Assembly: GCF_963921235.1 (NCBI RefSeq)
Contig: NC_086108.1
Coordinates: 69,256,001 to 69,320,000 of the forward strand
Direction: 5' to 3'
DNA length: 64,000 nucleotides
From: Mobula hypostoma
Lineage: Eukaryota
Shown here: positions 8,391-61,378 of the stretch, piece after piece
How the letters are laid out: each line of letters starts with the position of its first letter
Numbering within the stretch: the stretch's first letter is position 1
Made by a program: the position numbers and the translations under genes
Notes under the pieces: model-generated
Seen by the model: only the letters and a program-made list of their open reading frames with translations
Told to the model about the DNA's origin: nothing
Databases searched by the model: none

Positions 8391-11300
8391 CTGGGTGGCC
8401 ATTCCCACTGCATCATTTTACGCACATACCTGGAGGCCTTAAACTTTGCAGTTTTTTCATGTAGTTTTTGTAGTTTTTTTGGCTAGTCTATACTGATATT
8501 TCATTTTCTTGTTTAATTATACGGTCTGTTGTAGGTTAACGGTTTTCTTTATATATACCTGTTTTTTCTTTGTATTATATCATTTTTGCTTTAATCGGTG
8601 TACTTTTTACTCTTTTACTGTTTTATAACTTTAGCTGATCTTTTTATATATACACTTTTTTTTAGTGAGCATCTATCGGAAGTCATGGGGGTAGATCTAG
8701 TGCTTGCTTCTTTCTGGCTAGTCTATCTTAGATTTAGCTTTGAGGTTACAGGGTGGGGGGTGGGGGGGCTTCACTTTTTAGTTTTTCTTTCTTCTTGGGC
8801 TATTTATATTATTGAAGTATTTGTCGCGTCCTCTTTCTCGCTATCTCATGTTTATTCTGTTCCCTTTCTGGGTTTGTGGGTTGAACCTATTGTCAATCCT
8901 CCTTTATTTGAGGGTTGACTTTAGGGATTATGGAGTCTGCTATTAATTTTGTCTCTTGGAATACTAATGGTCTTAATCATCCAATTAAAAGGGAAAAAAT
9001 CTTTAAAGGATTCCGGAGACTTAAAGCACATATACTATTTTTACAAGAGACCCATGTGCGGAGGGGGGACAGATTACGTTTTTTTAAGTTCTGGAAGGAT
9101 CAACACTTTCATTCGAAGTCCAACGCCAAAATTCGAGGAGTTTCTATTTTTATAGATCCCTCAATCACTTTTGTGCAACACGATATTATTTCTGATCTGA
9201 ATGGTAGATTTCTATTGGTTAGTGGTTTACTCTTTAATAAAGAGGTAGTTTTGGTTAATGTCTATGCTCCAAACTTGGACTGTCCAGAATTTTATAAATC
9301 ATTATTTAATTTGTTCCCGAATTTGAATGAGTTTTCACTAATCTGGGGCAGAGATCTTAATACTTGTTTATCCCCATTATTGGACCGTTCGACTCTACCC
9401 AATAAATCCGCAACCTTGATTAATTCATTTCTCTCAGATTCAGGATCAATGGACATTTGGCAACTTTTGCATCCCCAGGAAAAAGACTTCTCTTTTTTTT
9501 CACATGTTCATCATTCCTATTCAAGAATTGATTTTTTTTTTATTGACTCTCATCTTATTTCTTCAGTGGTTAAATGTGAATATAACTCTGTAACCATTTC
9601 GGATCATGTTCCACTTAAGCTTTCTATTAAAATATTGGCCAATACACAAAATAATAGACAATGGCATTTTAATTCATTGTTGCTTCAGGACTTGTATTTT
9701 GTTAACTTTATGAATGAACAGATTGATCTCTTGTTTACAATTAACTGTACAAAGGATATATCCATAAACACCCTTTGGGATACTTTTAAAGCTTGTATCC
9801 GTGGCCAGATCATCTCGTACTCTGCTGCTTTGAGGAAAAGGTTGAAGGAGGAGGAGTTGGTTCTTGTGGACAAGATTAAGGAAATTGATAAGAAATATGC
9901 TACAGCTCCCTCTGAGAAGTTGTATAAACAAAGAACTGAACTTCAAATGGAACACAGTTTATTACTTTCATCCTCTATTGAAAATCAATTAATGAAAACA
10001 AGAAGCGAATTTTATATACATAGTGACAAAGTTGGTGAACTATTGGCTAATCGGTTGAAGACTATACTAAATTTCAAATTAATCAGATTTGTAATCAAAA
10101 AGATCAACTGACATTTGATCAAGCTGAGATTAATCAATCCTTTTTTGACTTTTATTCCTCTTTATATCAATCAGAGTCTCCACGAGATTCTAAACATATG
10201 TATGACTTTTTAGATAACCTAGACTTCCCTAAGATTTCACACGATATATGTTCTATGTTAGACACTTCCTTTACCACTGATGAGATTAAGAATGTTATTT
10301 TTTCTATGAACCTGGGGAAAGCTCCTGGTCCTGATGGGTTTACCGTGGAATTTTATAAATTTTTTGCATCCTCATTAATCCCTTGGCTATTCAGGGTTCT
10401 GGAGGCCTCATTAAAACTTGGTAAACTACCCGAATCCTTTTATAGAGCATCGATCTCTTTAATATTAAAGAAGGATTTTTATATATATTTCAGGCATTAC
10501 TGATTTTTGTTCCAAAATCCTTTTTTGACAAAGTTGACTCTAAAATTTCTTCATTTATTTGGCACAATAAAAACCCCAGACTGGGTAGAATACATCTACA
10601 GAAAGCTAAGAGAGTTGGAGGCTTGGCATTACCTAATTTTAGATTCTATTATTGTGCAATTAATATTCAATACATGAAATTTTGGTTACTTGATCAAGAT
10701 ATACTATCCATTCCTAATTGGGTAGTATTGGAATTACAATCTGCTCAGGGTTACGCACTTGGCTCCATTTTAGGTTATTCTCTTCCTTTCGATTTGAAAC
10801 GCCATAAACGGGTTTGTAACCCGATAGTTAAACATACCTTACGCATCTGGTTTCAATTCCGAAAATTTTTTGATCTTAATCAATTTGGGCTAACGATTCC
10901 TATTTTAGGCAACATATTCTTTCCCCCCTCTTCTACGAACCATGCCTTTCAAATTTGGAAGACCAATGGTATATCACGGTTTTTGGATTTATTTTTAGAT
11001 GGCTCCCTTATGTCTTTTGAACAATTATCTGTCAGATAGAACTTACCAAGAATACATTTTTTTAGATATCTCCAAGTTAGAAATTTCCTAAGTACCATAC
11101 TTTCTTCCTTTCCGGCGTTTCCCCCTACATATATTTTAGATATTATAATTAACCTTAACCCGTGTCAGAAAGGTGTAACAGCTATTATTTATAATACTAT
11201 CATGAAACTTAGGATAGCTCCATTCGATAAGATTAGGTCCGATTGGGAAAAGGAATTGGGTTTTACTATTTTGGCGGATGACTGGGCGCATATTTTACAA

Positions 11301-12193
11301 CTAGTCAATACTTCCTCTATCTGTTCCAAACATTCCCTAATTCAATTTAAAGTTGTTCATAGAGCACATATGTCTAAAGATAAATTAGCTCGTTTTTATT
11401 CTCATATTAACCCTCTTTGTGACATGTCATGGGGAGATAGCTTCCTTAACTCATATGTTTTGGCCCTGTCCTACTCTGGAAATTTTTTGGAAAGACATTT
11501 TTAATATTATCTCAAAGGTATTGAATACAGATATTTCTCCCCATCCTATTACTGCTATCTTTGGATTACCTAAAATTTCCACTAATCTTTCCCCTTCAGC
11601 CCATAGAATGATTGCATTTCTTACTTTAATGGCAGAAAGATGTATTTTACAACATTGGAAGAAGATTAACGCCCCAACTATGTTTTTTTGGTTTTCTCAA
11701 ACGATACTATGTTTCAATCTGGAAAAAATCAGAAGTAATCTTTATGATACTTCAGTTAAATTTGAACAGACCTGGAGATCTTTTATTCAACATTTTCATT
11801 TAATGTAACTTTTTTTTTCTCTTTGACCATATTTACATTCCTTTCTTGGTTTTTAACTGTTATTAATGGAGGTTGGGTTTGAGGACCTGATTGTTTAAGT
11901 TGTTTAAGTCTACTTGGTACCTCTTAGCCCATTGCTTTGCTTTGTTTTTTTTAGATTAGTTGCACGGTGGGTTTTTTTTTGGGGTCTTTTTTGGGTTTTT
12001 TCTTCTCTTTATTGATATATATGGAAAATTAGTATACTATTATATTACCTCATTATTTTATAACTAAACTGCACTGCTTGTACATTTTTATGTATTAATA
12101 TCTCTTGTAAATTTATATCGCAACAGTGTATTAGTTTCTATATGTTTTACCTTTTGTGTACTAATTCAATAAAAAGATTTAAAAAGAAAGAAA
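8391..12193 (+). mobile_element. 5'-truncated L1-clade LINE with internal RT deletion
   Basis: APE endonuclease (VSWNTNGL, LQETH, NVYAPN, SRIDFF, SDH), KAPGPDGF, C-terminal zinc knuckle (HMFWPC), AATAAA plus A-rich tail. Likely TSD agaaagt. Confidence 0.92.
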
Positions 12194-20465: not shown

Positions 20466-21099
20466 CACCTTATATTAAATAATATTGTTATTATTTATTC
20501 ATTCAAGTAACATTATTAACCATACATAGCTGCCTGCTGAGATTGGGAAAATATTAGACCTCACCAATATGGTTGATTCTTGAGCCACACTGAGGCAAGA
20601 ACAGCAGATAGTTTTTCACCTGAAGGATATTAGCAAGACGGGTTGGCTGTTTTAAACAGTTGGCAGCGTGATTCAATGGCAGTTTTCACTAGTTGGCCTG
20701 AGCCCGAAATCAGTAAATTTTCCACCAGGCCATGTAAGATGTAAAGAAAACTAGGTCAGAAAAGATGTGGAATCAGAATCAGCTTTAATATTACTGGCAT
20801 ATGTTGTAAAATTTGTTGTTTTGCAACAAGTGTATAGATTGGGTTTGAATTGAAAATGAATGGAGTTTGACTTCAAGTTCCAGAAGACATGTTGATGGGG
20901 GCTTATCATGGAAACATGCCTGAGATGTTTTGTCAGAAAAAAGCTTTGTTTTCGGTTAAAAGTAACAGTTTTTTTAAAATGCCTCTGACATTCATAAATA
21001 TTTTTTAATAAAGCATTAAAATTGATGTGAATTATTGGATCATCTGAAAAAATAGTTAATTAAAAATCAAAACATATAAAATAACTACTTCATCTACTG

Positions 21100-21990
21100 C
21101 ACAGAGTCTTGCCATCTTCAGAAGTTTCTGATGACTCTGCCATTGTTGGATGCGTCAGCAAGGGAGATGAGACTAAGTACAGGGCTATGGTAGGAAACTT
21201 TGTCACATGGTGTGAGCAGAATTATCTGCAGCTTAATGTGAAAACGACTAAGGAGCTGGTGGTGGACCTGAGGAGGGCTAAGGCACCGGTGACCCCTGTT
21301 TCCATCCAGGGGGTCAGTGTGGACATGGTGGAGGATTACAAATACCTGGGGATACAAATTGACAATAAACTGGACTGGTCAAAGAACACTGAGGCTGTCT
21401 ACAAGAAGGGTCAGAGCTGTCTCTATTTCCTGAGGAGACTGAGGTCCTTTAACATCTGTCAGACGATGCTGAGGATGTTCTACGAGTCTGTGGTGGCCAA
21501 TGCGATCATGTTTGCTGTTGTGTGCTGGGGCAGCAGGCTGAGGGTAGCAGACACCAACAGAATGAACAAACTCATTCGTAAGGCCAGTGAAGCTGTGGGG
21601 TTGGAACTGGACTCTCTCACAGTGGTGTCTGAAAAGAAGATGCTGTCCAAATGCATGCCATCTTGGACAATGTCTCCCATCCACTACATAATGTACTGGT
21701 TGGGCACAGGAGTACATTCAGCCAGAGACTCATTCTACCGAGATGCAACACAGAGCGTCATAGGAAGTCATTCCTGCCTGTGGCCATCAAACTTTACAAC
21801 CCCTCCCTTGGAGGGTCAGACACCCTGAGCCAATAGGCTGGTCCTGGACTTATTTCCTGGCATAATTTACATACTATTATTTAATTATTTATGGTTTTAT
21901 ATTGCTATATTTATACTCTATTGTTGGTTGATGCAACTGTAACGAAACCCAATTTCCCTCGGGATCAATAAAGTATGACTATGACTATAA
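21100..21990 (+). mobile_element. Rex1/Babar-like LINE 3' portion
   Basis: SDDSAIVG, LQLNVKTTKELVVD, YKYLG, LYFLRRLRSF; AATAAA plus (tatgac)n tail. Confidence 0.88.
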
Positions 21991-25701: not shown

Positions 25702-25879
25702 GCTTCTGCAGTAAGATTTGAATTAAAATCTTTTTTTAGTTTGTCCCATAAAACATTACATCATGAGGAGACAAGAAAATGATTGTGCCCTTAATTTAGA
25801 AATTTAATAGACAACTTTGGTGCTGCTTTAAGAGCCAGAATGTTGATAAAATATTCATTTAAAAAGGTTGAGATCAATC
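25702..25879 (+). repeat. Direct repeat copy 1 flanking the HERO-like element
   Basis: Near-identical to 26993-27164. Confidence 0.92.
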
Positions 25880-26992
25880 TCGTTACTTGTTACATACACC
25901 TGTTAGGGCGCATTCTCCAGATACCTTATAAGGTAACCGTGGCCTTCAGCCAGGAGCAGATGTCATCAGGTGGTTCCCAACTTCACAGAGTGTTTTGACC
26001 CTTAACCACGACACTCTCCAGTTGGTGGGCCAGCAGTGGTGGCCAAATCACTGCCCATCTGCTCCTGGCTTCCAGCTTCCCTCCTCTCACCTACTCCAAA
26101 TCCAACAAGAGACTCGTTCTGCCTCTTCCCCCATCCTACGAGTTGCTTGTTTTTTGCTCCTTTTGTCCAGGCCCAGAGCTGACAACAACTGCCATGCTGA
26201 TTTGGCTGGGAAACCTCTGCAGCCGATCTCTACAGGGAGCAACCATGCCTGCCATCCCTTGTCTTTGCACTCCTGCACTAAGGGCTGGTACTTCAAGCCC
26301 TGTCTTTCATGGGCCTCTTCCCACCCCTCCTCCCACGGCACGGTCAGCTCAACCAGAATTATTTTCCTGTCTTCAGTTGACCACAGTACAATGTCTGGGC
26401 ATAGGGTTGTGTGCACCACACCCAGGAACTTCAACCACCTTCCCACATCGACCCTCATCTCCCAGGTCCTGGCCGTTAGCAGCAGATTGGGCTTTGGTTG
26501 TTTGGTTACAAAAGGTCTGACTCCCTTTTTGATGAAGGTGATGGCCTTCCTCAAATCTGTGCCAGCCGTCCTCTTCTTGCTTCTCTTTCTCTAGTGTGTC
26601 AGCAAGAGCCAGAAGCATTTTATCATGGCGCCACCTATAACGTCCTTGAGGTAGAGCTGTTTTACACCCGGACAGTATATGTGCCAGTGTCCCCTTTTGA
26701 CCACAGAGCTTACAGTTCGAGTCCTCTCTCATCACCCATGTGTACAGATGTAATGGTGAAGGAAGGGTGTCATACACAAATCGCAAGAGGAAGGAAATAC
26801 GGAAGGGCTCCAGTCTCCATAACTCTGCCCATGAGATCCTGCTCTTGGGCAGATCCCATTTTGTCCAGGCACCCTGAGACCCGTGTTCCACTGCCTTCTC
26901 TTCCTCACGGATCCGTACTTCTGCCTCTATCATGTCTCGCGTTATGCTTGCATTTCCCCAATGCTGGAAGTGAACTGAGCCAAGGCCTTGCC
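25880..26992 (-). mobile_element. HERO-like non-LTR retrotransposon (restriction-like endonuclease), 5'-truncated
   Basis: CKLC-x7-H-x4-C knuckle, RYRWRHD, and PDIVLWS...LVELTVPWEE (PD-(D/E)xK type). Confidence 0.88.
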
Positions 26993-27164
26993 GCTTCTGC
27001 AGTAAGATTTGAATTAAAATCTTTTTTATTTCATCCCATAAAACATTACATCATGAGGAGACAAGAGAATGATTTTGCCCTTAATTTAGAAATTTAATAG
27101 ACAATTTTGGTGCTGCTTTAAGAGCCAGAATATTGATATTCACTTAAAAAGGTTGAGATCAATC
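26993..27164 (+). repeat. Direct repeat copy 2 flanking the HERO-like element
   Basis: Near-identical to 25702-25879, with a few substitutions and a small indel. Confidence 0.92.
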
Positions 27165-27421
27165 AAAGATATGTATGTAGATAGATTTGTTATTTATTTG
27201 ATGGATATTTTTGAAGAATTAACAGGGAGGATTATTGAGATTTTTACGAAGTTTGACATGGATTTTAGAAGGTGGACGAGATCATGATGGGGAGAATGAT
27301 AAATTTAAAATTATGATGAATTAAAACATTCTTAGTTTTATATAATGTAAAGTATTACTTTGTAAATATAATCTTTAAATATTTGTTGGAAGAACCAAGT
27401 TCTGCACCTGGACCAAAGGTA

Positions 27422-28750
27422 TCTATATACTACTAAAACTCTCATGCTCTGTTTGTCTGTTTGTGACCTCCATTTAGAGCAAACAGTGCATTACAGCGGC
27501 ACTACTTTTGGCTAAATCGGCTTAAAATGCGCTAACTTACAGAATGCTGGCAAAGTTCAGGGTTATATATTCGTGCTCACTCACCAAAATCAACAGCCCC
27601 GCTTTCACCTGAGAGCCGATGTCAGCCATGACAGAAACCGCAACGCAACACCACGATGCATGCGCACGGCCAGCCTCAGCAGCACCTCACGATGCTCACG
27701 GCAGCGACACCAACCACAGCAAAAGGGCAAGGCAGCTCTATTTCGAGCGGTCACATTCTGCTAATCACCATCAGCATTGTGCAGGATTGGGACAGATCAA
27801 ACTGCGACCCATCAATAAGAGATAATTAAATCTTATTGTAATGACATACTTTGAGACAGGCATCAAACCCTTTGCTGCAGAAAGGACAGCGGTGACTATA
27901 TTACGTCCATTTCAGAGAGCGCCAACCACATCATCAAGAATAATCAGCATCCTGGAGGCTTTGGTGTTACTGCTTCGTATCTTCTATCCAGCATTAGGGT
28001 AAAAAAAATATGGACAGCCAAATTATGCCACGTGGAAAGAGAATGAGAAGGGGGACATTATGGTCAAGAGATGACGCCAAACGTCGTCGGGAAGCAACAA
28101 GGAGAGGGAGAGAACAAGAATCGGATGACGCCAGGGCCACACGACTCCACGATCAAAGAGTCAGGACAAAAAAGATGAGAGAAGAAGAGACAGAGGAGGA
28201 GAGGCATGCACGTCTCCAAAATGACAACAGCAGGCACAGAAGGAGGAGAGACAAAGAGGCAAAGGAGCTGAGAAATGCACGTCTCCAGGATCAGAGACAA
28301 ACAGCAAACAGCAGAATAGCTGAAGAGACGGAGGATGAAAGGACTGCACGTCTCCAGAATGACAAAAACAGGCACAGAAGGAGGAGAGAGGAAGAGACAA
28401 AGGAGCTGAGAAATGCACGTCTACAGGATCAGAGACAAAGAATAAACAGCAGAAGAGATGAAGAGATGTCGGATGAAAGGACTGCACGTCTACAGAATGA
28501 CAACGAGAGGCACAAGGGTGGCAGATCAACCAGAAATTATGCCATCAAAAGTGTCCTTCTTTAAATGAGGAGGAGCTATATTTGCCTTGCTACACATCAT
28601 TCTTCTTTAATAAACTGAGGTTTTCTTCTTCAATTTCCAAAGCAAAGCGATACCAGTAGCATTCAGGAAAATTTAATGTTCATTCTGGTCACATCAGACT
28701 GCACTACCCTTCTCTCAAAGGGTGCCCCATCGGGTCACCCCATTGTCTAG
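27422..28750 (+). mobile_element. Non-autonomous Helitron
   Basis: 5' a|TCTATATAC, 3' CTAG|t, subterminal hairpin GGGTGCCCC-ATC-GGGTCACCC (28720-28740). Inserted between A and T with no TSD. Confidence 0.88.
28010..28564 (+). CDS. Helitron-borne ORF with six 23-aa STPR-like repeats
   Basis: Repeats such as ETEEERHARLQNDNSRHRRRRDK at 69-nt period (28118-28531). Uninterrupted 184 aa; AATAAA at 28609. Confidence 0.7.
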   Translation: MDSQIMPRGKRMRRGTLWSRDDAKRRREATRRGREQESDDARATRLHDQRVRTKKMREEETEEERHARLQNDNSRHRRRRDKEAKELRNARLQDQRQTANSRIAEETEDERTARLQNDKNRHRRRREEETKELRNARLQDQRQRINSRRDEEMSDERTARLQNDNERHKGGRSTRNYAIKSVLL

Positions 28751-29649
28751 TATACAATGAAATCTAATACATTCGACAGAGTAGGCACAGTGAAATTAAA
28801 ATGTTTCATTCTTGACATTCTTCAGCCAGGCCATTTTCTTCTGGGGACCAAAGGAAAGGATACACTGTCTGTGAAATTGGCTGCCCTAATAAAGGAGGGT
28901 TTTTCTGTTTGCAATGAGCAAAGTGTTGCCTCCTATCTTTCCTTAGTAATTGCTGCTGCTCAGCCTGGCCTCAGTCCTCTTCTCAATTTTCTCCAGAACA
29001 AGTGAAAATCATAGAAATATACTTATGATCAACCAGTGACTTAGTCCTGACAAGATGGGGAAGAACTGTAATACTCCGCACCTTTTAAGTGATCATTAAA
29101 AGGCTTTTTAAGTGGTGCTTTAGTAAGTCTCCAAATTGTAGTATCTAGCAAGAACATAACTCCTTTATCAGGCATTCCCTCACACTGAGCGCAGATTAAA
29201 CAACTGCTTTTCCTCAAGATCCCACCTTGATTCCCTCAGCAGGTAATTGCAACGGACCGTAAAGCTTGAAATTGCTCCCAAAGAATTATTAGTCCTTAAA
29301 ACTTCAACATCTGGAGGAAGAGCTTTGTACATTAATGTTATGTAATCAACATTATTGTGCAGATGTAACTGTGAATCCACTGTTATCTGAAATTGTATAA
29401 ATGTGGCATTGGACGGGAGAAGCGTTGGAGACAACACTCTGCTCATTGCAAATGGAAAAGCCCTCCGCTTGTGGACCTCCTTTATTAGGTCCACCAGTAT
29501 AGGCAGTGTATCCTTTCCCTTAATCCCTGATCCATCTCACAACGTGCCATCACATTCCAATTAAGGCACCCTGGGTATGAGCCCCAGGTGGAATAAGGAA
29601 AATGTGCTTTTTTACTCTCCCTTAACTAATTAGTGGGTGGTAATGCTAT

Positions 29650-40679: not shown

Positions 40680-42300
40680 TCCGGTCACAGGCCATGTTCA
40701 TCTGTCCTGTTTCTGGCTTAGGCGGGAAATTAGTTGGTCTTTTCACTCCCTTCTGGACAAATGCTGCTGGTGTCAGAGCATTAGTTGTTCTAGGAGGCAA
40801 GGAGTTGGTTGCTATCCTGTTGGCCTCAATCGCCACTGCCAGACTCTTCAAGCTTGATTGTGATGCCATGTGTATCTGCCTTGTATGAGGCTGGATTTGC
40901 AGTTTGCCAGGATATGCTTGAGGGTTGCTGGACTCGGGCACAGGGCACAAGTTGGGTCCTCACAAAACCACTGACGGAGGATTTTTGTGAGGGAAGCACA
41001 TCACATGTAGCTCTGATGAGAAAGCCAAGTCTGATTGCTTCCATCTCCCATATGTCCTTCCAGCTGATTTTCCTCCTCTCAATACTTTCCCACTGCATCC
41101 ATTGCCCCTGCTTAACCAGGGAGACAGCCTTTAAACTTCTGTCTACCTCTCCTTGTCGCCATTCTTCCTTGACAACCATCTTCCTTCGCTTTGGAATTGT
41201 AGCCTTGTGCCAGGTGATCACTTGCTGCCAGATCAAATCCACCCTGTCCTGTTAGACTTGCCCCACAGTGTCTCAATACCTAAGGACTGCTGTTGCTTGC
41301 TGCAGCATATCAGCTGGGGTCCATTTATGCCCAGTTGATAAGGTGCGAGCAGTGTTACTGATGATCTTGTCACGAGAGTCTTTGAGTCTCATCTGTCGAC
41401 ACACCTTCGAACACTTTAATTCCTCTGTATGGCCGGTGAAAGGTAATTCAAGGACTCCTTTATGGTAACCGATGTTACTGATGGGACACCGAGTCATTTC
41501 TTTACGAACAATGTGATGGTTCACTCGAGCTCTTCACGGTTGTTGATAGGACCTTGTAGACAGTGAGTGGCCACATCACCCGGGGTAGGAGTCCAAACTG
41601 TAACACCAGAGCTTCAACCTCCCGGACAGCATGGTCTTGTCAATGTTATCCAGGCCACTGGTGATGTGTTGCTTTAGTTGCTGCGCCTCCTCTTTGTCAT
41701 GAAGCTGGCATCGTACCATCTACCCAGGCTTTTGACAGGCCGTTCAGACACTGTTGGAAATGGGTCATCACCAATGAAGAATTTTATGTCTTTCAGCATC
41801 CCCTTGACTATGGAGATGCTTCGTGACTTGCTGGGTTTGATTTCCATTCTGGCCAACTTGATGTTTTCCTGCAGCTTTCCAAGTAGTCGCTTGGTGCATG
41901 CTACAGTAGTAGTTGTTATATTGCCCATGTATGCCCTAATAGGGGGAAGACAAAGTCCAGCACTTGTTCCCTCACTGCCTATCACCCATCTTGAAGCCCT
42001 GATAATGACCTCATGGCCATTGTGAAGGCCGGGGTGATATAGTGCAACCTGCCACAATGCCTCCTTCCAGTCCCTGCCATGTTGCTGTAAAATCTGCTGT
42101 TGTGAAGCACAATTGCAGGTCCTGACAGTACAGTACAACATCATCAGCACTGTGGTGGGCTCTGGTATCTGGAAGAAATCAAATGCTTTCTGGTGGGGTG
42201 CATGGGGAGTTGAGCCAAATGCATTGGTGAGGTTCAGGAAAGTCACAGATTTCTTTTGTCCTTTTGTCCTAGCTGCTTGGATCTGGTGCCATAAGGGATG
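40680..42300 (-). mobile_element. Second, more decayed HERO-like retrotransposon
   Basis: FLNLTNAFGS, IKPSKSRSISI, VKSLGRWYD, RLGFLIRATCDVLPS. Confidence 0.85.
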
Positions 42301-43062
42301 GGCCATTCATAAATACAAAACTTAGAAAGCTTCCTGAAGTATGTTTATATCAGATGCTTGTGTAGTCAGATTGTTTTCTGCGCTTACAGAGAAATTATTT
42401 TGGGCATGAAAACAGCTGTTAGATCTATAGTTATAAAATATTTAATAGTTTCTACTGAAGAATCGGTTGTTGGCAGGAAATTTAATCAAAGTTCAAAAAA
42501 TTTTTAAGTTTGGAATGAACAAGAAAAAAATCACTCTGGTTGTGGGGAAAGAAATGATATCATCAATTTAAACGCATCACGCAAAGAATGTGGACTGTTA
42601 GAATATTTCCCCACAAGAAAGTTTAAGAGAGGCACAACTACTTCATTCAAGGGAAATATAGATAAATATTTGAAACAGAGGAAGATATGGTCTCATTTGA
42701 GACAGGATGTGAACTTTGACTATAACAGACATTAGTCCAATATGCCATAGTTCTTTGACTTCTCCTAAATTCTGGAAGAAATTATCATTCCCATCACTGA
42801 ACATTTTTATGGTGTAAATTTATCACCATCTGTCTCAACCTTGCTTCTGCAATTATACACCTACTTTATCATTACACCTGAGAGTGCATCATGCTGTCTT
42901 CAGGCAGCAAATTGTAATAGCATTTGATTCCAGTCACAAGTTATTTATGTCAAGCCGAAATTTTTCTCTCAAAGGTTTTAGTTTTGAAAAATAAAAGATA
43001 GAACAAAATAATTACTTACTTTGCCTAAAACTAAATTTTAAATTATATATACTTTTGTTTAG

Positions 43063-43823
43063 CTGCTGGAAAGAAACCCCCAGAAGACCATAACTCATGG
43101 GCGACCCAAGAACCAAACGAAGAGAAGACTCAGCCAACATCTGGAAACAGCTGTCCATGGAGTGGCCAAGCTGGTGTTCAGGATGAGGCCCCAAGTGAAT
43201 ATTTTGTTGACAGCATGCCATCAACTGACTGTGAAAGCAATGCAAATAAAAAATTACCACCCAGTTCCCGATCTGATTCAATAAAATCTCCAGTTTTAAA
43301 AGAAGATGACGATTTTGAAAGCACCAGTAGCTGCAGTTTGCCTGGCAATACATGGGAGATGCCAAGCCCAATGGCAAATGAGGACTTACTCGACAAAAAG
43401 CTTAATTATTTAGTGAGCATTGATAAACTGAAATCTACAACAGATAAAGAATTCCAAAAAGGTGACCTTCCTACACAGAAGGACTTCATAAATGAATACT
43501 GCTCAGAAACTCCTTCGCAAGCCCTTCTGCAGTACAACCACGATTGTGATACAAGTAGTCAGTCTTCGGATAGTTGTTGTTCATGTGCTGAACAATCAGC
43601 ATATTGTGCTCTAAATAACATTTCTTTACAAGACAACTGTGATACCCTTGTTTTCATTCCAAGGAGACCAACAGCCAGTAATCTACAACAAGAGTGCGCA
43701 GTACAGGGTTCCAGCACTGAAGATTCACATGTAAAGGAGCAAAAACTAGTCCTCCCTCGGCATACCAAGAGTGGTGCAGTCATTTATCGACTTAGTGATC
43801 CTGCAGCTGAATTCAAAGACTAG
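43063..43823 (+). CDS. Terminal coding exon F: Ser/Asp/Glu-rich cytoplasmic tail
   Basis: acttttgtttag acceptor, phase 1. 761-nt open frame (contains ORF 43215-43823) ending in TAG. No repeat-like content; followed by an AT-rich UTR. Confidence 0.82.
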
Positions 43824-56272: not shown

Positions 56273-57839
56273 CAGTGCCTGTTGAATGTTTTCATGTTTT
56301 ATTATTTTACAACATTGAATCACAGTGGATTTAATTTGGCTTTTTTTAGACATTGGTCAACAGAAAAAGACTCTTTTGTGTCAAGGTGAAAACAGATCTC
56401 TACAAAATCATCTATATGAATTACAAATATAAAACACAGAATAATTGATTGATAAGTATTCACCCCTTCAAGTCAGTATTTTGTAGATGCACCTTTGGCA
56501 GCAGATACAGCCTTGAGTCTGTGTGGATAGGTCTCTATCAGCTTTGCACATCTGGACACTGTAATTTTTCCCCATTCTTCTTTACAAAACTGCTCAAGCT
56601 CTGTCAGATTGCATGGAGATTGTGAGTGAACAGCCCTTTTCAAGTCTAGCCACAAGCTCTCAATTGGATTGAGGTCTGGACTCTAACTTGGTCACTCTAG
56701 GACATTAACTTTGTTGTTTTTAAGCCATTCCTGTGTAGCTTTAGCTTTAAGCTTGGGGTCATTGTCTTACTGGAAAACAAATCTCTCCTACGGTACATTT
56801 CCCTTGCAGACTGCATCAGGTTTTCCTCCAGGATTTCCCTGTATTTTGCTGCATTCATTTTACTCTCTACCTTCACACAGCGTGATGCAGTCTCCACCAC
56901 ACTTCACAGTAGGGATGGTATGTTTATGATGATGTGTGGTTTGGCCTATGCTAAACATAGGGTATAGTCTGATGGCCAAAAAGCTCAATTTTAGTTTCAT
57001 CAGACCATAGAACTGATTTCAGCATCTCCCACATGGTTTCTGGAAAATTCTAGTTGAGATTTCATGTGAGTACTTTTTCCAACAGTGGCTTTCTCTTTGC
57101 CACTCTCCCGTAAAGCTGTGACTGGTGAAATACCTGGGCAACAGTTGTTCTATGTGCAGTCTCTCCCATCTCAGCCACTGAAACTCCCCCAGAGTTGTCA
57201 TAAGTCTCTTGGTGGCCTCCCTCACTAGTCCTTTTCTTGCATGGTCACTCAGTTTTTGAGGATAGCCTGCTCTAGGCAGATTTACAGCTGTGACATATTC
57301 TTCCCTTTTCTTGATGATTGACTTAACTGTACTCCAAGGGATATTCAGTGACTTGGAAATTTTCACGTACCCATCTCCTGACTTGTGCTTTTCAATAACC
57401 TTTCTGTGGAGTTGCTTGGAGTGTTATTTTGTCTTCCTGGTGTAGATTTTGCCAGGATACTGACACACCAGCAGTTGGACCTCCCAGACGCAGGTGTATT
57501 TTTACTACAATCAATTGAAACACCTTGACTGCACACAGGTCTCCAAAAACAGATCTCCATTTAACTAATTATGTGACTTCTAAAACCAACTGGCTGCACC
57601 AGTGATGATTTGCTGTGTCATACTAAGGGGGTGAATACTTAACGCAATCTATTATTTTGTGTTCTATACTTGTAATTAATTTAGATCACTTTGTAGAGAT
57701 CTGTTTTCACTTTAACATGAAAGAGTCTTTTTCTGTTGAACAGTGTCAAAAAAGCCAAATTAAATCGACTGTGGTTCAATGTTCTAAAACAATGAAACAT
57801 GAAAAATTCCAAGAGGGTGAATACTTCTTATAGGCACTG
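56273..57839 (-). mobile_element. Tc1-like DNA transposon with ~200-bp inverted repeats, defective
   Basis: CAGTGCCT...AGGCACTG termini and long IRs. Transposase remnants ISKSLNIPWSTVKSIIKK, SPDLNPIE, WLDLKRAV. Confidence 0.92.
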
Positions 57840-58995: not shown

Positions 58996-60929
58996 AGAAA
59001 AAGACGGTAATCATGTATTTTACCAATTTGAAAGTAATCACCTACCTGCCAATTGTCACCAATGAGAAGCTTCACAATAATTTCCTCAAAGGGTCAGGCG
59101 TAAAATGTGTATGGGGGTCTGAAGCAACTCTTTTCCTGGTGTCATCTGCTGATCTGTGGTGCCACAGCCATGATGTGACATACAGCTCAAGATTCCACTG
59201 AACTAGAGGAGGTCCGTGTAGTTTAACAAACATAAGTGCTGATACATGAGTTATGAGAATTCTTGAGCGTGTTGTTGTTATTATCAAGTTCATGTGACTG
59301 AATCCTCTCTCACACTCAGCAGTACTAATAGGAATAACTTGTGAGCAGCTCATTAATGGGCGTAAACCTTGGGGGATGCGGCGTCCATTATCCTCCACAT
59401 AATCTCTGAAGGCATTTATTACAGAGGAAGAAGAAAGCTTAAACCTCTTACAGAGAGATGATATTGCAGCTTCTCCATAATTAGGCGGTATTTCAGCAGG
59501 CCAGTTATCTTTATCAAGGAAACACATTTCATTTAGCAGGGATTTATACATACTTTGAGGTTTAGAAGTTTGAGAACCTTTCAAGAATGTTGCCGTGAAC
59601 ATACAGTGCTGCAAATTGTTTATAAGACTAGTAAGAAACTGTAGATAATTAATGGAGACAATTTTGTTGTTGCTTGTTAAGGTAATTTCTCCAAACTTCC
59701 CCTTTTCAACTGCCTCTTGAACTTCTAGAGTTTTTGTACCAGGTTGCTGTTTCAGTCCACGCAGTGATATTATACTCTGTTGGATCAGTTTGTCTGCATA
59801 AACAATCGTAGTAGTGCGATTCTGTGAATACTCTGACAGTGAACCAAGTTCATGCAACGTGTCATACATTAGAGCTAAGTCCAATAGAAACTGTTCTGAA
59901 GAAAGTCTTTTCAACAGACCTTCATAGGTATTTCTGTCACTCCCAGATCTCGTTTCATCCTTTATTGCTGTTTCAAAATGAAAAAACAGTGTTTCATAAT
60001 TTTGCCACACCGCTGAAACTGTTCGAAATGAGCTAGCTACCCACCTGTGCCCAGAACACGGCCTATTTTGCAAATCTGTTGTTCTAGTTGAGAGGCACTT
60101 TCAGACAGTTCCTTTTGATTTAGAGGTGATCTACTGTAAACAGAGTACAATTTGTCCATAAATGATTGAAAATGATTTATTCCATGAACTCTCTCACCGA
60201 ATCACCTACTGCAAGTTCTAATCTGTGATTAAGACAGTGCCAAATTATCATGTCAGGGTAATGTTCCTTGAGAATTGTAGCAACACCAGATTTGACACCA
60301 AGCATTACGCTCGCCCCATCACTAGCAAATGCTACAAGGTTCTGTTTCAAGTAAGAGGCATCAAATCCATGGTTATTGAGACAGTTCAATAGATGCTTTG
60401 CAATATTTGCTGCTTTCTGATCAGGCAGTTCAATTAGATCTAAAAACATAAAATGGGGATCACCTTCCTTATCACTCTCACATTTGAAATAAACTATTAG
60501 GGCGGTCTTAATGCTCAGGCTTGTTGATTCATCAATGAGAACAGAAAACTTGCCATGTATCTACTTGATATGCTGGAAAATTTTCTTTTTCACATTAATG
60601 GCTATGTGATTAATTATCTCTGCAGCACTAGTGCGGGAATGCAGTCCAATTCCAATGTCAATACCATTTTGTTTTGAAGTTCCAGTAAGCCAAAGTGATC
60701 AGAGTATGATCATTCTGAGCTAAATAATATGCAGAATGAAAAATTGAACAGGTTGCCTTTAATTGTGAAGCTTTCATGGTGTCACATAATTTTCCAAGAG
60801 CATCTTCACTAGCTATATTTTCAACACTTAGAGCATCAGTGTGAGCTTTTGATAGTTTGTGATCAACAATTTTTTTCTGAGAGACTTCAAGTGTGTACTT
60901 TGATTGGCTCCATAATAGGATACTTGGTA

Positions 60930-61378
60930 CATCTGCCATGCCAATTCTCCGATGATCTTTAAGTTCTTGAGACTGTAGAGCTTTACGTAGCTAGCCAACC
61001 ATCCCTTATTAGCCTTAAATTCCTTCCTCTCGCTCTCCTCAACCCCCTCACAGTAGTGCTCATAGAGGCCAAGTGCTTTTTCACACATAATTGTGCCATC
61101 AACAGGGATATGCTTCTGTGACATGCCACACACTTAATGCTTTCTCAGTCTTTGCAAGCACTTTATCATGAACCAGAGAGACCATTTTTGCCTTTGTAGG
61201 GGTAGTACTAACACTTGCACGAATTTCAGCTTCATTCTGCTTTATTGTGTGAATGCTCGATTCATTCTTAGCGACCTTACAGCCCACTTCAGCAAGCGAC
61301 ATGCCACTTTTCAAAAGATCTAAGATTTTTATTTTCTCAGCAAACAATGCTCAAATAACGAGTGCTGGAGAGAGACTG
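60930..61378 (-). mobile_element. pogo/Tigger N-terminal (HTH-psq/CENP-B-type) fragment inside the hAT
   Basis: EKIKILDLLKSGMSLAEVG...NESSIHTIKQ and FKANKGWL. Homologous to 30590-30940. Confidence 0.85.

Follow-up and report, generated by a model that had tools for sequence, protein, structure and literature searches.

A 1.33-kb non-autonomous Helitron with an open reading frame of STPR-like repeats that likely stems from a RepHel transposase gene

For the Helitron Helraiser, it has been established that the left end and the hairpin-CTAG terminator mediate mobilization in trans, and its hairpin is situated 11 nt before the 3' end (PMC4778049). Non-autonomous families of canonical Helitrons (HLE1) are already known, and the same is true for the presence of STPRs in Helitrons. 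The hallmarks of STPR domains are a tandem period of 23 residues and the residues Glu1, Thr/Ser2, and Arg9, and in the silkworm protein FMBP-1 the contacts to thymine are made by Met13, Ser14, Tyr16, Ala17, and Leu21 (PMC4856987). Outside the Helitrons, small P elements often encode repressors, e.g., the 207-aa KP, and are present in multiple copies in wild flies (PMC7776569; PMC5602686).

The window, i.e., the whole analyzed stretch of 64 kb, contains a short Helitron that touches on all three systems (Table 1). It has the ends of a canonical Helitron, lacks the enzymatic domains of a transposase, and contains an open reading frame (ORF) for a protein that consists largely of STPR-like repeats.

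Ends, content, and copies of the element

The sequence-only reading of this DNA had proposed complete Helitron termini that enclose 1.33 kb without Rep or helicase, and both parts of the proposal were confirmed. The TC (27422-27423) follows an A at 27421, and the hairpin and the CTAG (28747-28750) precede a T at 28751. The hairpin has a folding energy of -8.2 kcal/mol (z -2.96), and one of 200 shuffles was equally good. Rep, helicase, and the Cys motif were not matched within the element by tblastn with 13 related proteins, including four full-length RepHels, and the repeat region alone aligned; Pfam gave no Rep or helicase match either. In the 64-kb window neither a RepHel remnant (tblastn) nor a second copy of either Helitron end was found. 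Scans of metagenome and viral contigs for the Helitron end pattern gave no match, none of 170 candidates was confirmed in a RepHel scan of viral contigs, and an Rfam search gave no match.

The uninterrupted 184-aa ORF that had been described is indeed present (28010-28564, no internal stop), and so is its own AATAAA at 28609. The start has to be revised in part, because the ATG at 28010 opens the frame, but the relatives share the second ATG at 28025. While the ORF frame is free of stops, the other five frames over this region contain three to nine stops each. A chance ORF was ruled out by the stops in these five frames and by the existence of homologs. The ORF region has a periodicity of 69/138 nt. 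The reported retention of CpGs also held, with an observed/expected ratio of 0.57 in the element versus 0.27 across the remaining window. It was rejected as a sign of function, because youth suffices as an explanation and C>T and G>A changes are numerous among the copies.

Table 1. Features of the Helitron and domain matches elsewhere in the window (positions refer to the window).
Feature	Position	Strand	Evidence
Non-autonomous canonical Helitron (HLE1), 1,329 nt	27422..28750	+	termini; loose contig ends in X1 and X12; empty site in X12
Left end, TC directly after target A (27421)	27422..27446	+	sequence; contigs leave at 27421 (X1) and 27420/27421 (X12)
5' non-coding part, putative promoter and 5' UTR, differs among copies	27447..28009	+	without long ORF
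Candidate splice acceptor, pyrimidine run and AG (27990-27991)	27970..27991	+	sequence
184-aa ORF; start shared by relatives is ATG 28025	28010..28564	+	translation, alignment with relatives
Five complete STPR-like repeats of 23 aa plus a truncated sixth one; homology to the RepHel N-terminus	28118..28513	+	profile search, alignments
Putative degraded RepHel C-terminal motif with the stop codon	28520..28564	+	stop-anchored profile test
AATAAA, 44 nt past the stop; putative signal, likely the transposase gene's own	28609..28614	+	sequence
Subterminal hairpin core, one bulge, 10 nt ahead of the element end	28720..28740	+	folding
Right end, CTAG before target T (28751)	28747..28750	+	sequence; contigs leave at 28751/28752 (X1, X12)
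Decayed L1-type element, Exo_endo_phos	8912-11808	+	domain match
RTE/Rex-type fragment, ALKBH8_N match	21085-21828	+	domain match
Tc1/Sleeping Beauty HTH	57019-57423	-	domain match
hAT dimerisation domain	59072-60990	-	domain match

The evidence for a family stems from contigs of four of the 23 listed sequencing runs, i.e., X1 and X15 of organism A, X12 of organism E, and X19. X1 and X12 are DNA runs, while the assignment of X15 and X19 to RNA is a guess, and both may contain DNA; no silent control stretch was compared. Two X1 contigs match the left and right junctions and their flanks without a single difference. Organism A thus carries this very insertion and may be the source of the window; it is no independent sample. 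In X1 the depth is 11.4 and 12.9 in the two flanks and 3,409 to 72,703 in the bins of the element, the ORF bins have 975- to 3,216-fold flank depth (median 2,016), and in X12 they have 120- to 335-fold flank depth; summed contig depth is not copy number, and the "thousands" of copies that these values bring to mind are presumed.

At the two ends of the element many contigs run out into different surroundings. In X1 there are 68 loose contigs at 27421 and 100 at 28751, with a flank agreement of only 0.36-0.42. In X12 there are 87 on the left side (48 and 39 at 27420 and 27421) and 105 on the right side (75 and 30 at 28751 and 28752), and the flank agreement over both runs is 0.36-0.45. In addition, organism E has an empty site. 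In X12 contig record 9, positions 27418 and 28751 are separated by just six letters, the last three of which equal 27419-27421, and thus the flanks are joined without the element and without a target duplication, next to a 3-nt indel. The shared ends, the many different flanks in two organisms, and the empty site in E substantiate the multi-copy, non-autonomous family that had been postulated. The loose ends at 27421 and 28751 and the empty site also define the boundaries of the element independently. Two trivial alternatives were discarded, chance termini on the basis of the empty site and a single-copy deletion on the basis of the many different flanks.

In X1 the share of contigs that continue into unlike sequence is 0, and coverage extends over all of the 1.33 kb, which makes the short form with the ORF region the apparent main form of the family. 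Copies vary in repeat number and by internal deletions. Other copies have alternative 5' internal segments or deletions at 27571-27905, with 18 contigs at 27648 in X12, and shorter forms without the ORF were found in X19, with skips of 804 and 1,026 nt. Among the forms of X19 without the ORF is one of about 330 nt (region 27683-28710).

The neighborhood of the Helitron is rich in further elements. A 5'-truncated non-LTR retroelement fragment with a zf-RVT match, which we take to be HERO-like, occupies approximately 25880-26992 on the minus strand. Direct repeats of about 170 nt with 94-100% identity border it on both sides (25702-25879 and 26993-27164) and may represent a target duplication of unusual length. 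Another, decayed retroelement fragment (40826-42306, minus strand) resembles the one at 26-27 kb and has a weak RVT_1 match, but no flanking long repeats. Just to the right of the Helitron, inverted arms with 85-88% identity (28844-28933 and 29427-29527) suggest a MITE-like element at 28844-29527. An open frame of 262 aa rich in Ser and Asp (43035-43823, plus strand) has a weak match to RHEX (DUF4692; E 0.0067) and is possibly a host exon.

Relationship of the reading frame to RepHel transposases

The ORF product matches the Pfam family STPRs (PF21107) with an E-value of 3.4e-5, as had been anticipated, but its score of 24.6 bits is under the gathering cut-off of 27 bits, and therefore the repeats are termed "STPR-like". 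Similarly, five of the six 23-aa repeats that had been counted are complete, but the sixth leaves the pattern after about residue 17-18 of 23. Glu1, Arg6, Arg9, and Leu10 are each present in six of six repeats (24 of 24 positions), Thr/Ser2 and Arg20 in four of six repeats each, and repeats 2-3 and 4-5 represent a duplication of 138 nt. FMBP-1 is the only solved relative by sequence (E 0.014). Four of its base-reading residues, i.e., Met13, Ser14, Tyr16, and Leu21, occur in none of the six repeats and the fifth, Ala17, in one; the replacements are polar or basic residues. Because the thymine-reading residues are nearly all replaced, the AT-rich preference of FMBP-1 is not transferable, and the ORF product is predicted to hold on to the DNA backbone in the manner of an STPR domain, with a base preference that cannot be deduced from FMBP-1. 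In the structure model, which is helical, interruptions are present only where repeats 1, 2, and 4 begin (pLDDT 80.8, pTM 0.41). A Foldseek search with this model gave no matches, and an atlas search matched the ORF to STPR clusters at 0.88, which is a lead only. If it is made, the protein is predicted to be a basic, nuclear DNA binder built of helical repeats, without catalytic parts.

A search of the full protein collection yielded 44 proteins, 41 of which were new, and the STPRs family is matched in 34 of these 41. Two of the 41 contain STPRs and Helitron_like_N (PF14214) within one protein, and the strict RepHel Cys motif is found behind the repeats in eight of 47 homologs. Five of six long RepHel-type proteins align to the ORF through N-terminal repeats, in three of eight genomic RepHel frames repeats of this kind lie upstream and in frame, without an intervening stop, and the N-terminus of Helraiser aligns with the repeat region of the homolog P0052. 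These fusions, proteins, and loci bear out the earlier statement that similar repeats occur at the N-terminus of some Helitron proteins. Since RepHel-type proteins and loci carry such repeats in the same frame, the front of the ORF is, as judged from the alignments, the N-terminus of RepHel. In the close relative P0002, which is a contig product, the repeats run into the start of the RepHel Cys motif. The protein encoded by the ORF is itself absent from the collection of 15 billion proteins, which was searched from the first and from the second Met. A further homolog, P0034, is a 751-aa model that contains THAP, STPRs, and OTU together, and thus has STPR repeats beside Helentron-type domains.

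The sixth repeat ends at about residue 168, and the last 14 residues resemble the C-terminus of RepHel. For comparison, a profile of RepHel tails was derived from 72 metagenome loci and four proteins, which gave 35 distinct tails, 33 of which were used, and 13 columns. Thr, Asn, Val, and Leu of the ORF tail are in register with this profile, and the invariant Asn is situated nine residues before the stop, the commonest spacing (17 of 35 RepHel tails). The tail scored 5.3 bits, which was matched by one of 2,459 stop-anchored segments of the window and by 11 of 20,000 shuffles. With one compensated one-base shift the score was 12.9 bits, a value that was reached by none of 150 control segments (best 5.7). 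Both scores are below all of the real RepHel tails, which had leave-one-out scores of 14.5-38.3 bits. The distance from the stop to the end of the element is 186 nt, compared to 173-464 nt in the six of 35 loci for which a hairpin-CTAG end was found, and three of these six have a polyA-type hexamer between stop and end. As an alternative, the tail could be a partial duplication of the start region, since 11 nt that surround the start codon are found again in the tail region, at a chance level that is not low. Two X19 contigs have a loose end at 28514, at the putative junction described below, which by eye resembled the strand that precedes the RepHel tail, but it scored -1.4 bits and is one base out of register; this is within the top 1.7% of random 9-mers, while real RepHel tails scored 7.3-21.2 in this test.

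Alternatively, the autonomous parent might have a distinct accessory ORF for the STPR protein, complete with stop and polyA signal, which the mini-element has simply kept. HELIANO lists STPRs among 20 domains that are stably carried by HLE1, 17 of which are in separate ORFs (PMC11417382), and the weakness of the tail match to the RepHel end would also fit. However, in P0002, the closest relative, the repeats are followed by the RepHel Cys motif, fusions in the same frame occur in proteins as well as in loci, and the tail resembles the RepHel end beyond chance. Therefore, an accessory ORF is an improbable source of the repeat protein.

Instead, the ORF likely consists of the two ends of a RepHel transposase gene that were joined in frame, although the parent is reconstructed and the tail match is weak. 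One in-frame deletion, with a junction at about 28514-28520, would have removed the Cys motif/zinc finger, Rep, and helicase, and would have joined the N-terminal STPR-like repeats to the last dozen or so codons of the transposase. Start, stop, and AATAAA would then be those of the transposase gene, inherited by the mini-element. A full-length partner would copy the mini-element in trans via its left end and the hairpin-CTAG terminator, and the ORF would ride along as a passenger, with no selection on the short protein. In summary, this non-autonomous Helitron probably arose by an in-frame deletion in RepHel, is likely copied in trans, and likely carries the ORF as a passenger. Such a passenger ORF would exemplify that a Helitron deletion can leave a complete-looking mini-gene.

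Relatives in snake genes

The proteins closest to the ORF product are P0002 and gene models of Thamnophis (XP_013920868), Ahaetulla (XP_058029734), and two Crotalus species (XP_039192464 and KAK9405686), which are named RBM25-like, ZC3H13-like, or hypothetical. In repeats 1-4 these closest proteins are 59-71% identical to the ORF product, versus at most 44% for all other homologs. Over their first 124 residues, the three complete snake models share 62-68% identity with the part of the ORF that begins at its second Met and ends with repeat 4. The same three models have one common junction at residue 173-175, which is followed by a host-type half, whereas P0002 enters the start of the RepHel Cys motif at this point. 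The second half of the snake protein matches no named family; we presume, as an unsupported assumption, that it is the linker of a SCAN-zinc-finger gene.

Judging from the gene models, the snake gene likely represents an exonised Helitron piece at a single locus and not a mobile element. Its origin may be a splice that connected an old Helitron insertion to a host gene, before the split of colubrids and vipers. Because the identity between colubrids and vipers is 79% in the Helitron-derived part versus 68-70% in the host-type half, the greater conservation of the former suggests selection. The closeness to the snake proteins indicates what the module can become and has no direct bearing on the function of the mini-element. 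Host uptake of the module is likely in snakes, and with it the question of where host factors acquired their STPR domains becomes testable. As a passenger, the ORF of the mini-element scatters a ready-made exon for a predicted DNA binder over many sites.

Horizontal transfer of Helitrons has been reported in lizards, snakes, bats, and lamprey (PMC2997563). The host genome of the window is vertebrate-like, and its repeat types would fit a cartilaginous fish. If the host is indeed a cartilaginous fish, the closeness to snake proteins would point to horizontal transfer. In the literature searched, which comprised few subscription papers and had Repbase and Dfam outside its scope, neither a mini-Helitron with a repeat-only ORF nor such a snake gene was found. 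The mini-Helitron family may already be catalogued, while the exonised transposase piece of snakes is likely unreported.

Maintenance and possible role of the short protein, and comparison with known systems

The sequence-only reading had also suggested that the family may spread a stand-alone DNA-binding protein that assists, competes with, or represses the autonomous partner. A maintained stand-alone gene was not supported, because the intactness is expected by chance, a frameshift is common, stop and AATAAA are likely inherited, and there is no discrete transcript among the contigs listed. Compared to the family majority, this copy has at least seven private substitutions in 1,329 nt. One of those listed is in the ORF, which is not significant, and it changes the conserved Thr2 of repeat 3 to Ala. 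An intact frame of 555 nt is expected by chance with a probability of about 0.54-0.73 at 0.5-1% divergence, under assumed rates. Because the copy is near the family majority, its intact ORF is unremarkable. As stop and AATAAA likely were inherited from the end of the transposase gene, their presence would need no selection.

A family-majority stop or frameshift in the ORF is not among the variants listed for X1 and X12, and the 6 nt that are commonly deleted at 28039 leave the frame intact, in agreement with the snake form, which is two residues shorter. A +1 frameshift after 28167 accounts for 15% of the depth in X1, 29% in X15, and 1% in X12. Of the places listed, 136 in X1 and 218 in X12, 63 and 115, respectively, are C>T or G>A changes, which is consistent with a decay of methylated copies. 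The 138-nt duplicate contains 13 non-synonymous changes at 111 sites and four synonymous changes at 27 sites, a ratio of about 0.8 derived from only 17 changes. The duplicated repeats have diverged near-neutrally.

Contigs of the two putative RNA runs, X15 and X19, span the whole element and have loose ends into varied flanks at its termini, while the flanks of this particular copy are covered by neither of them. The AG after a pyrimidine run that had been proposed as acceptor at 27991 is present, but no splice joint ends there among the joints listed for the putative RNA contigs, and X19 records 26 and 27 cross 27991 unspliced. The one GT..AG joint among those listed, from 28159 to 28334, was rejected as a splice event and assigned to a deletion, because it also occurs in the DNA run X12. 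In organism A, the X15/X1 depth ratio is flat, with 0.077 in the 5' part, 0.076 in the ORF, and 0.070 after the AATAAA. The X19/X12 depth ratio is 0.109 in the ORF versus 0.060 in the 5' part and 0.048 after the AATAAA, but here different organisms are compared, and depth cannot rank the parts. The coverage pattern fits read-through or DNA carry-over, and contigs cannot reveal ends or strand. A spliced or discrete mRNA was not seen among the putative RNA contigs listed.

A host function of this copy, i.e., its domestication as a DNA-binding gene or exon, is highly improbable. The likely exonisation of the same module in snakes and the intact frame with its possible acceptor speak for it. However, the site is empty in organism E, the copy is one among very many, and its flanks are missing from both putative RNA runs. 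Furthermore, the one private substitution listed in the ORF strikes a conserved residue, and the protein is absent from the 15-billion-protein collection from either start.

In analogy to KP, the short protein might also be made and selected, bind Helitron DNA, compete with the transposase, and thereby damp or steer transposition. This would help to explain the abundance of this deletion form, and the anatomy of KP is alike, namely, a small, internally deleted multi-copy element that encodes an N-terminal DNA-binding part (PMC7776569; PMC5602686). When the first 489 residues are removed, Helraiser fails to bind ssDNA (PMC4778049), and its N-terminus is the part that aligns with the repeats of P0052. 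In addition, frame, start, stop, AATAAA, and all 24 of the Glu1, Arg6, Arg9, and Leu10 positions are kept, the closest relatives, those of snakes, are preserved as coding sequence, and the ORF bins of X19 are, relative to X12, about twofold deeper than the bins of the 5' part and those after the AATAAA, albeit between different organisms and with a depth that cannot rank parts. On the other hand, the near-neutral divergence of the duplicated repeats, the common frameshift variant, the ORF-less derivatives, the flat depth ratio in organism A, and the loss of the Cys motif together with the remaining N-terminal domain argue against a regulator, and no paper was found that shows binding of Helitron DNA by the repeats alone. 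Broken copies are compatible with a protein that acts in trans, and hence none of these observations is decisive. Taken together, regulation of this kind is unlikely, and the passenger ORF remains the preferred reading.

If the short protein is functional, it would represent a route of self-regulation that is undescribed for Helitrons in the literature searched, and it might serve as a brake in gene-transfer tools based on Helitrons. An extended version of this idea is unlikely to hold in full. It would comprise a first KP-like regulator of a rolling-circle element, made of repeats only and selected for Helitron binding and for tuning of its partner, which crossed distant vertebrate lineages, a subfamily that gave snakes a DNA-binding gene, and Helitrons as a recurrent source of STPR domains for host transcription factors.

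Compared to known systems, the mini-element is most simply described as a non-autonomous HLE1 of the Helibat/Helraiser type, with which it shares the TC...hairpin-CTAG ends, the insertion between A and T, the high copy number, and the lack of RepHel (PMC4778049; PMC11417382). It differs from them in that its apparent main form keeps an open 184-aa frame, likely composed of the N-terminal repeats and the last codons of the transposase. The N-terminal repeats of Helitron RepHels (Helraiser, PDB 7lcc) are likewise 23-residue repeats with Glu1, Arg6, Arg9, and Leu10, and the start Met-Pro-x-x-Lys/Arg is common to the ORF and to RepHel N-termini, while the identity to non-snake homologs does not exceed 44%. 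In contrast to the RepHel transposases, the repeats of the mini-element are followed by no Cys motif, Rep, or helicase. The snake gene models share four repeats with the ORF, but then contain a different segment and the host-type second half.

The STPR domain of FMBP-1 of Bombyx mori (PDB 5d23; PMC4856987), a type of domain that also occurs in ZNF821, has the same 23-residue period and the same Glu1, Arg6, Arg9, and Leu10. The two-residue linker plus 21-residue helix per repeat of FMBP-1 is predicted at three of the six repeat starts of the ORF product, whereas, as described above, its thymine-reading residues are absent with the exception of one Ala17. The KP element of Drosophila is likewise a small, multi-copy deletion derivative that has retained the N-terminal DNA-binding part of its transposase as an ORF (PMC7776569; PMC5602686). 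However, KP is a P element with cut-and-paste transposition, a THAP domain, and demonstrated repression, while the element described here has Helitron ends and no THAP match in Pfam, and therefore the similarity between the two is an analogy only.
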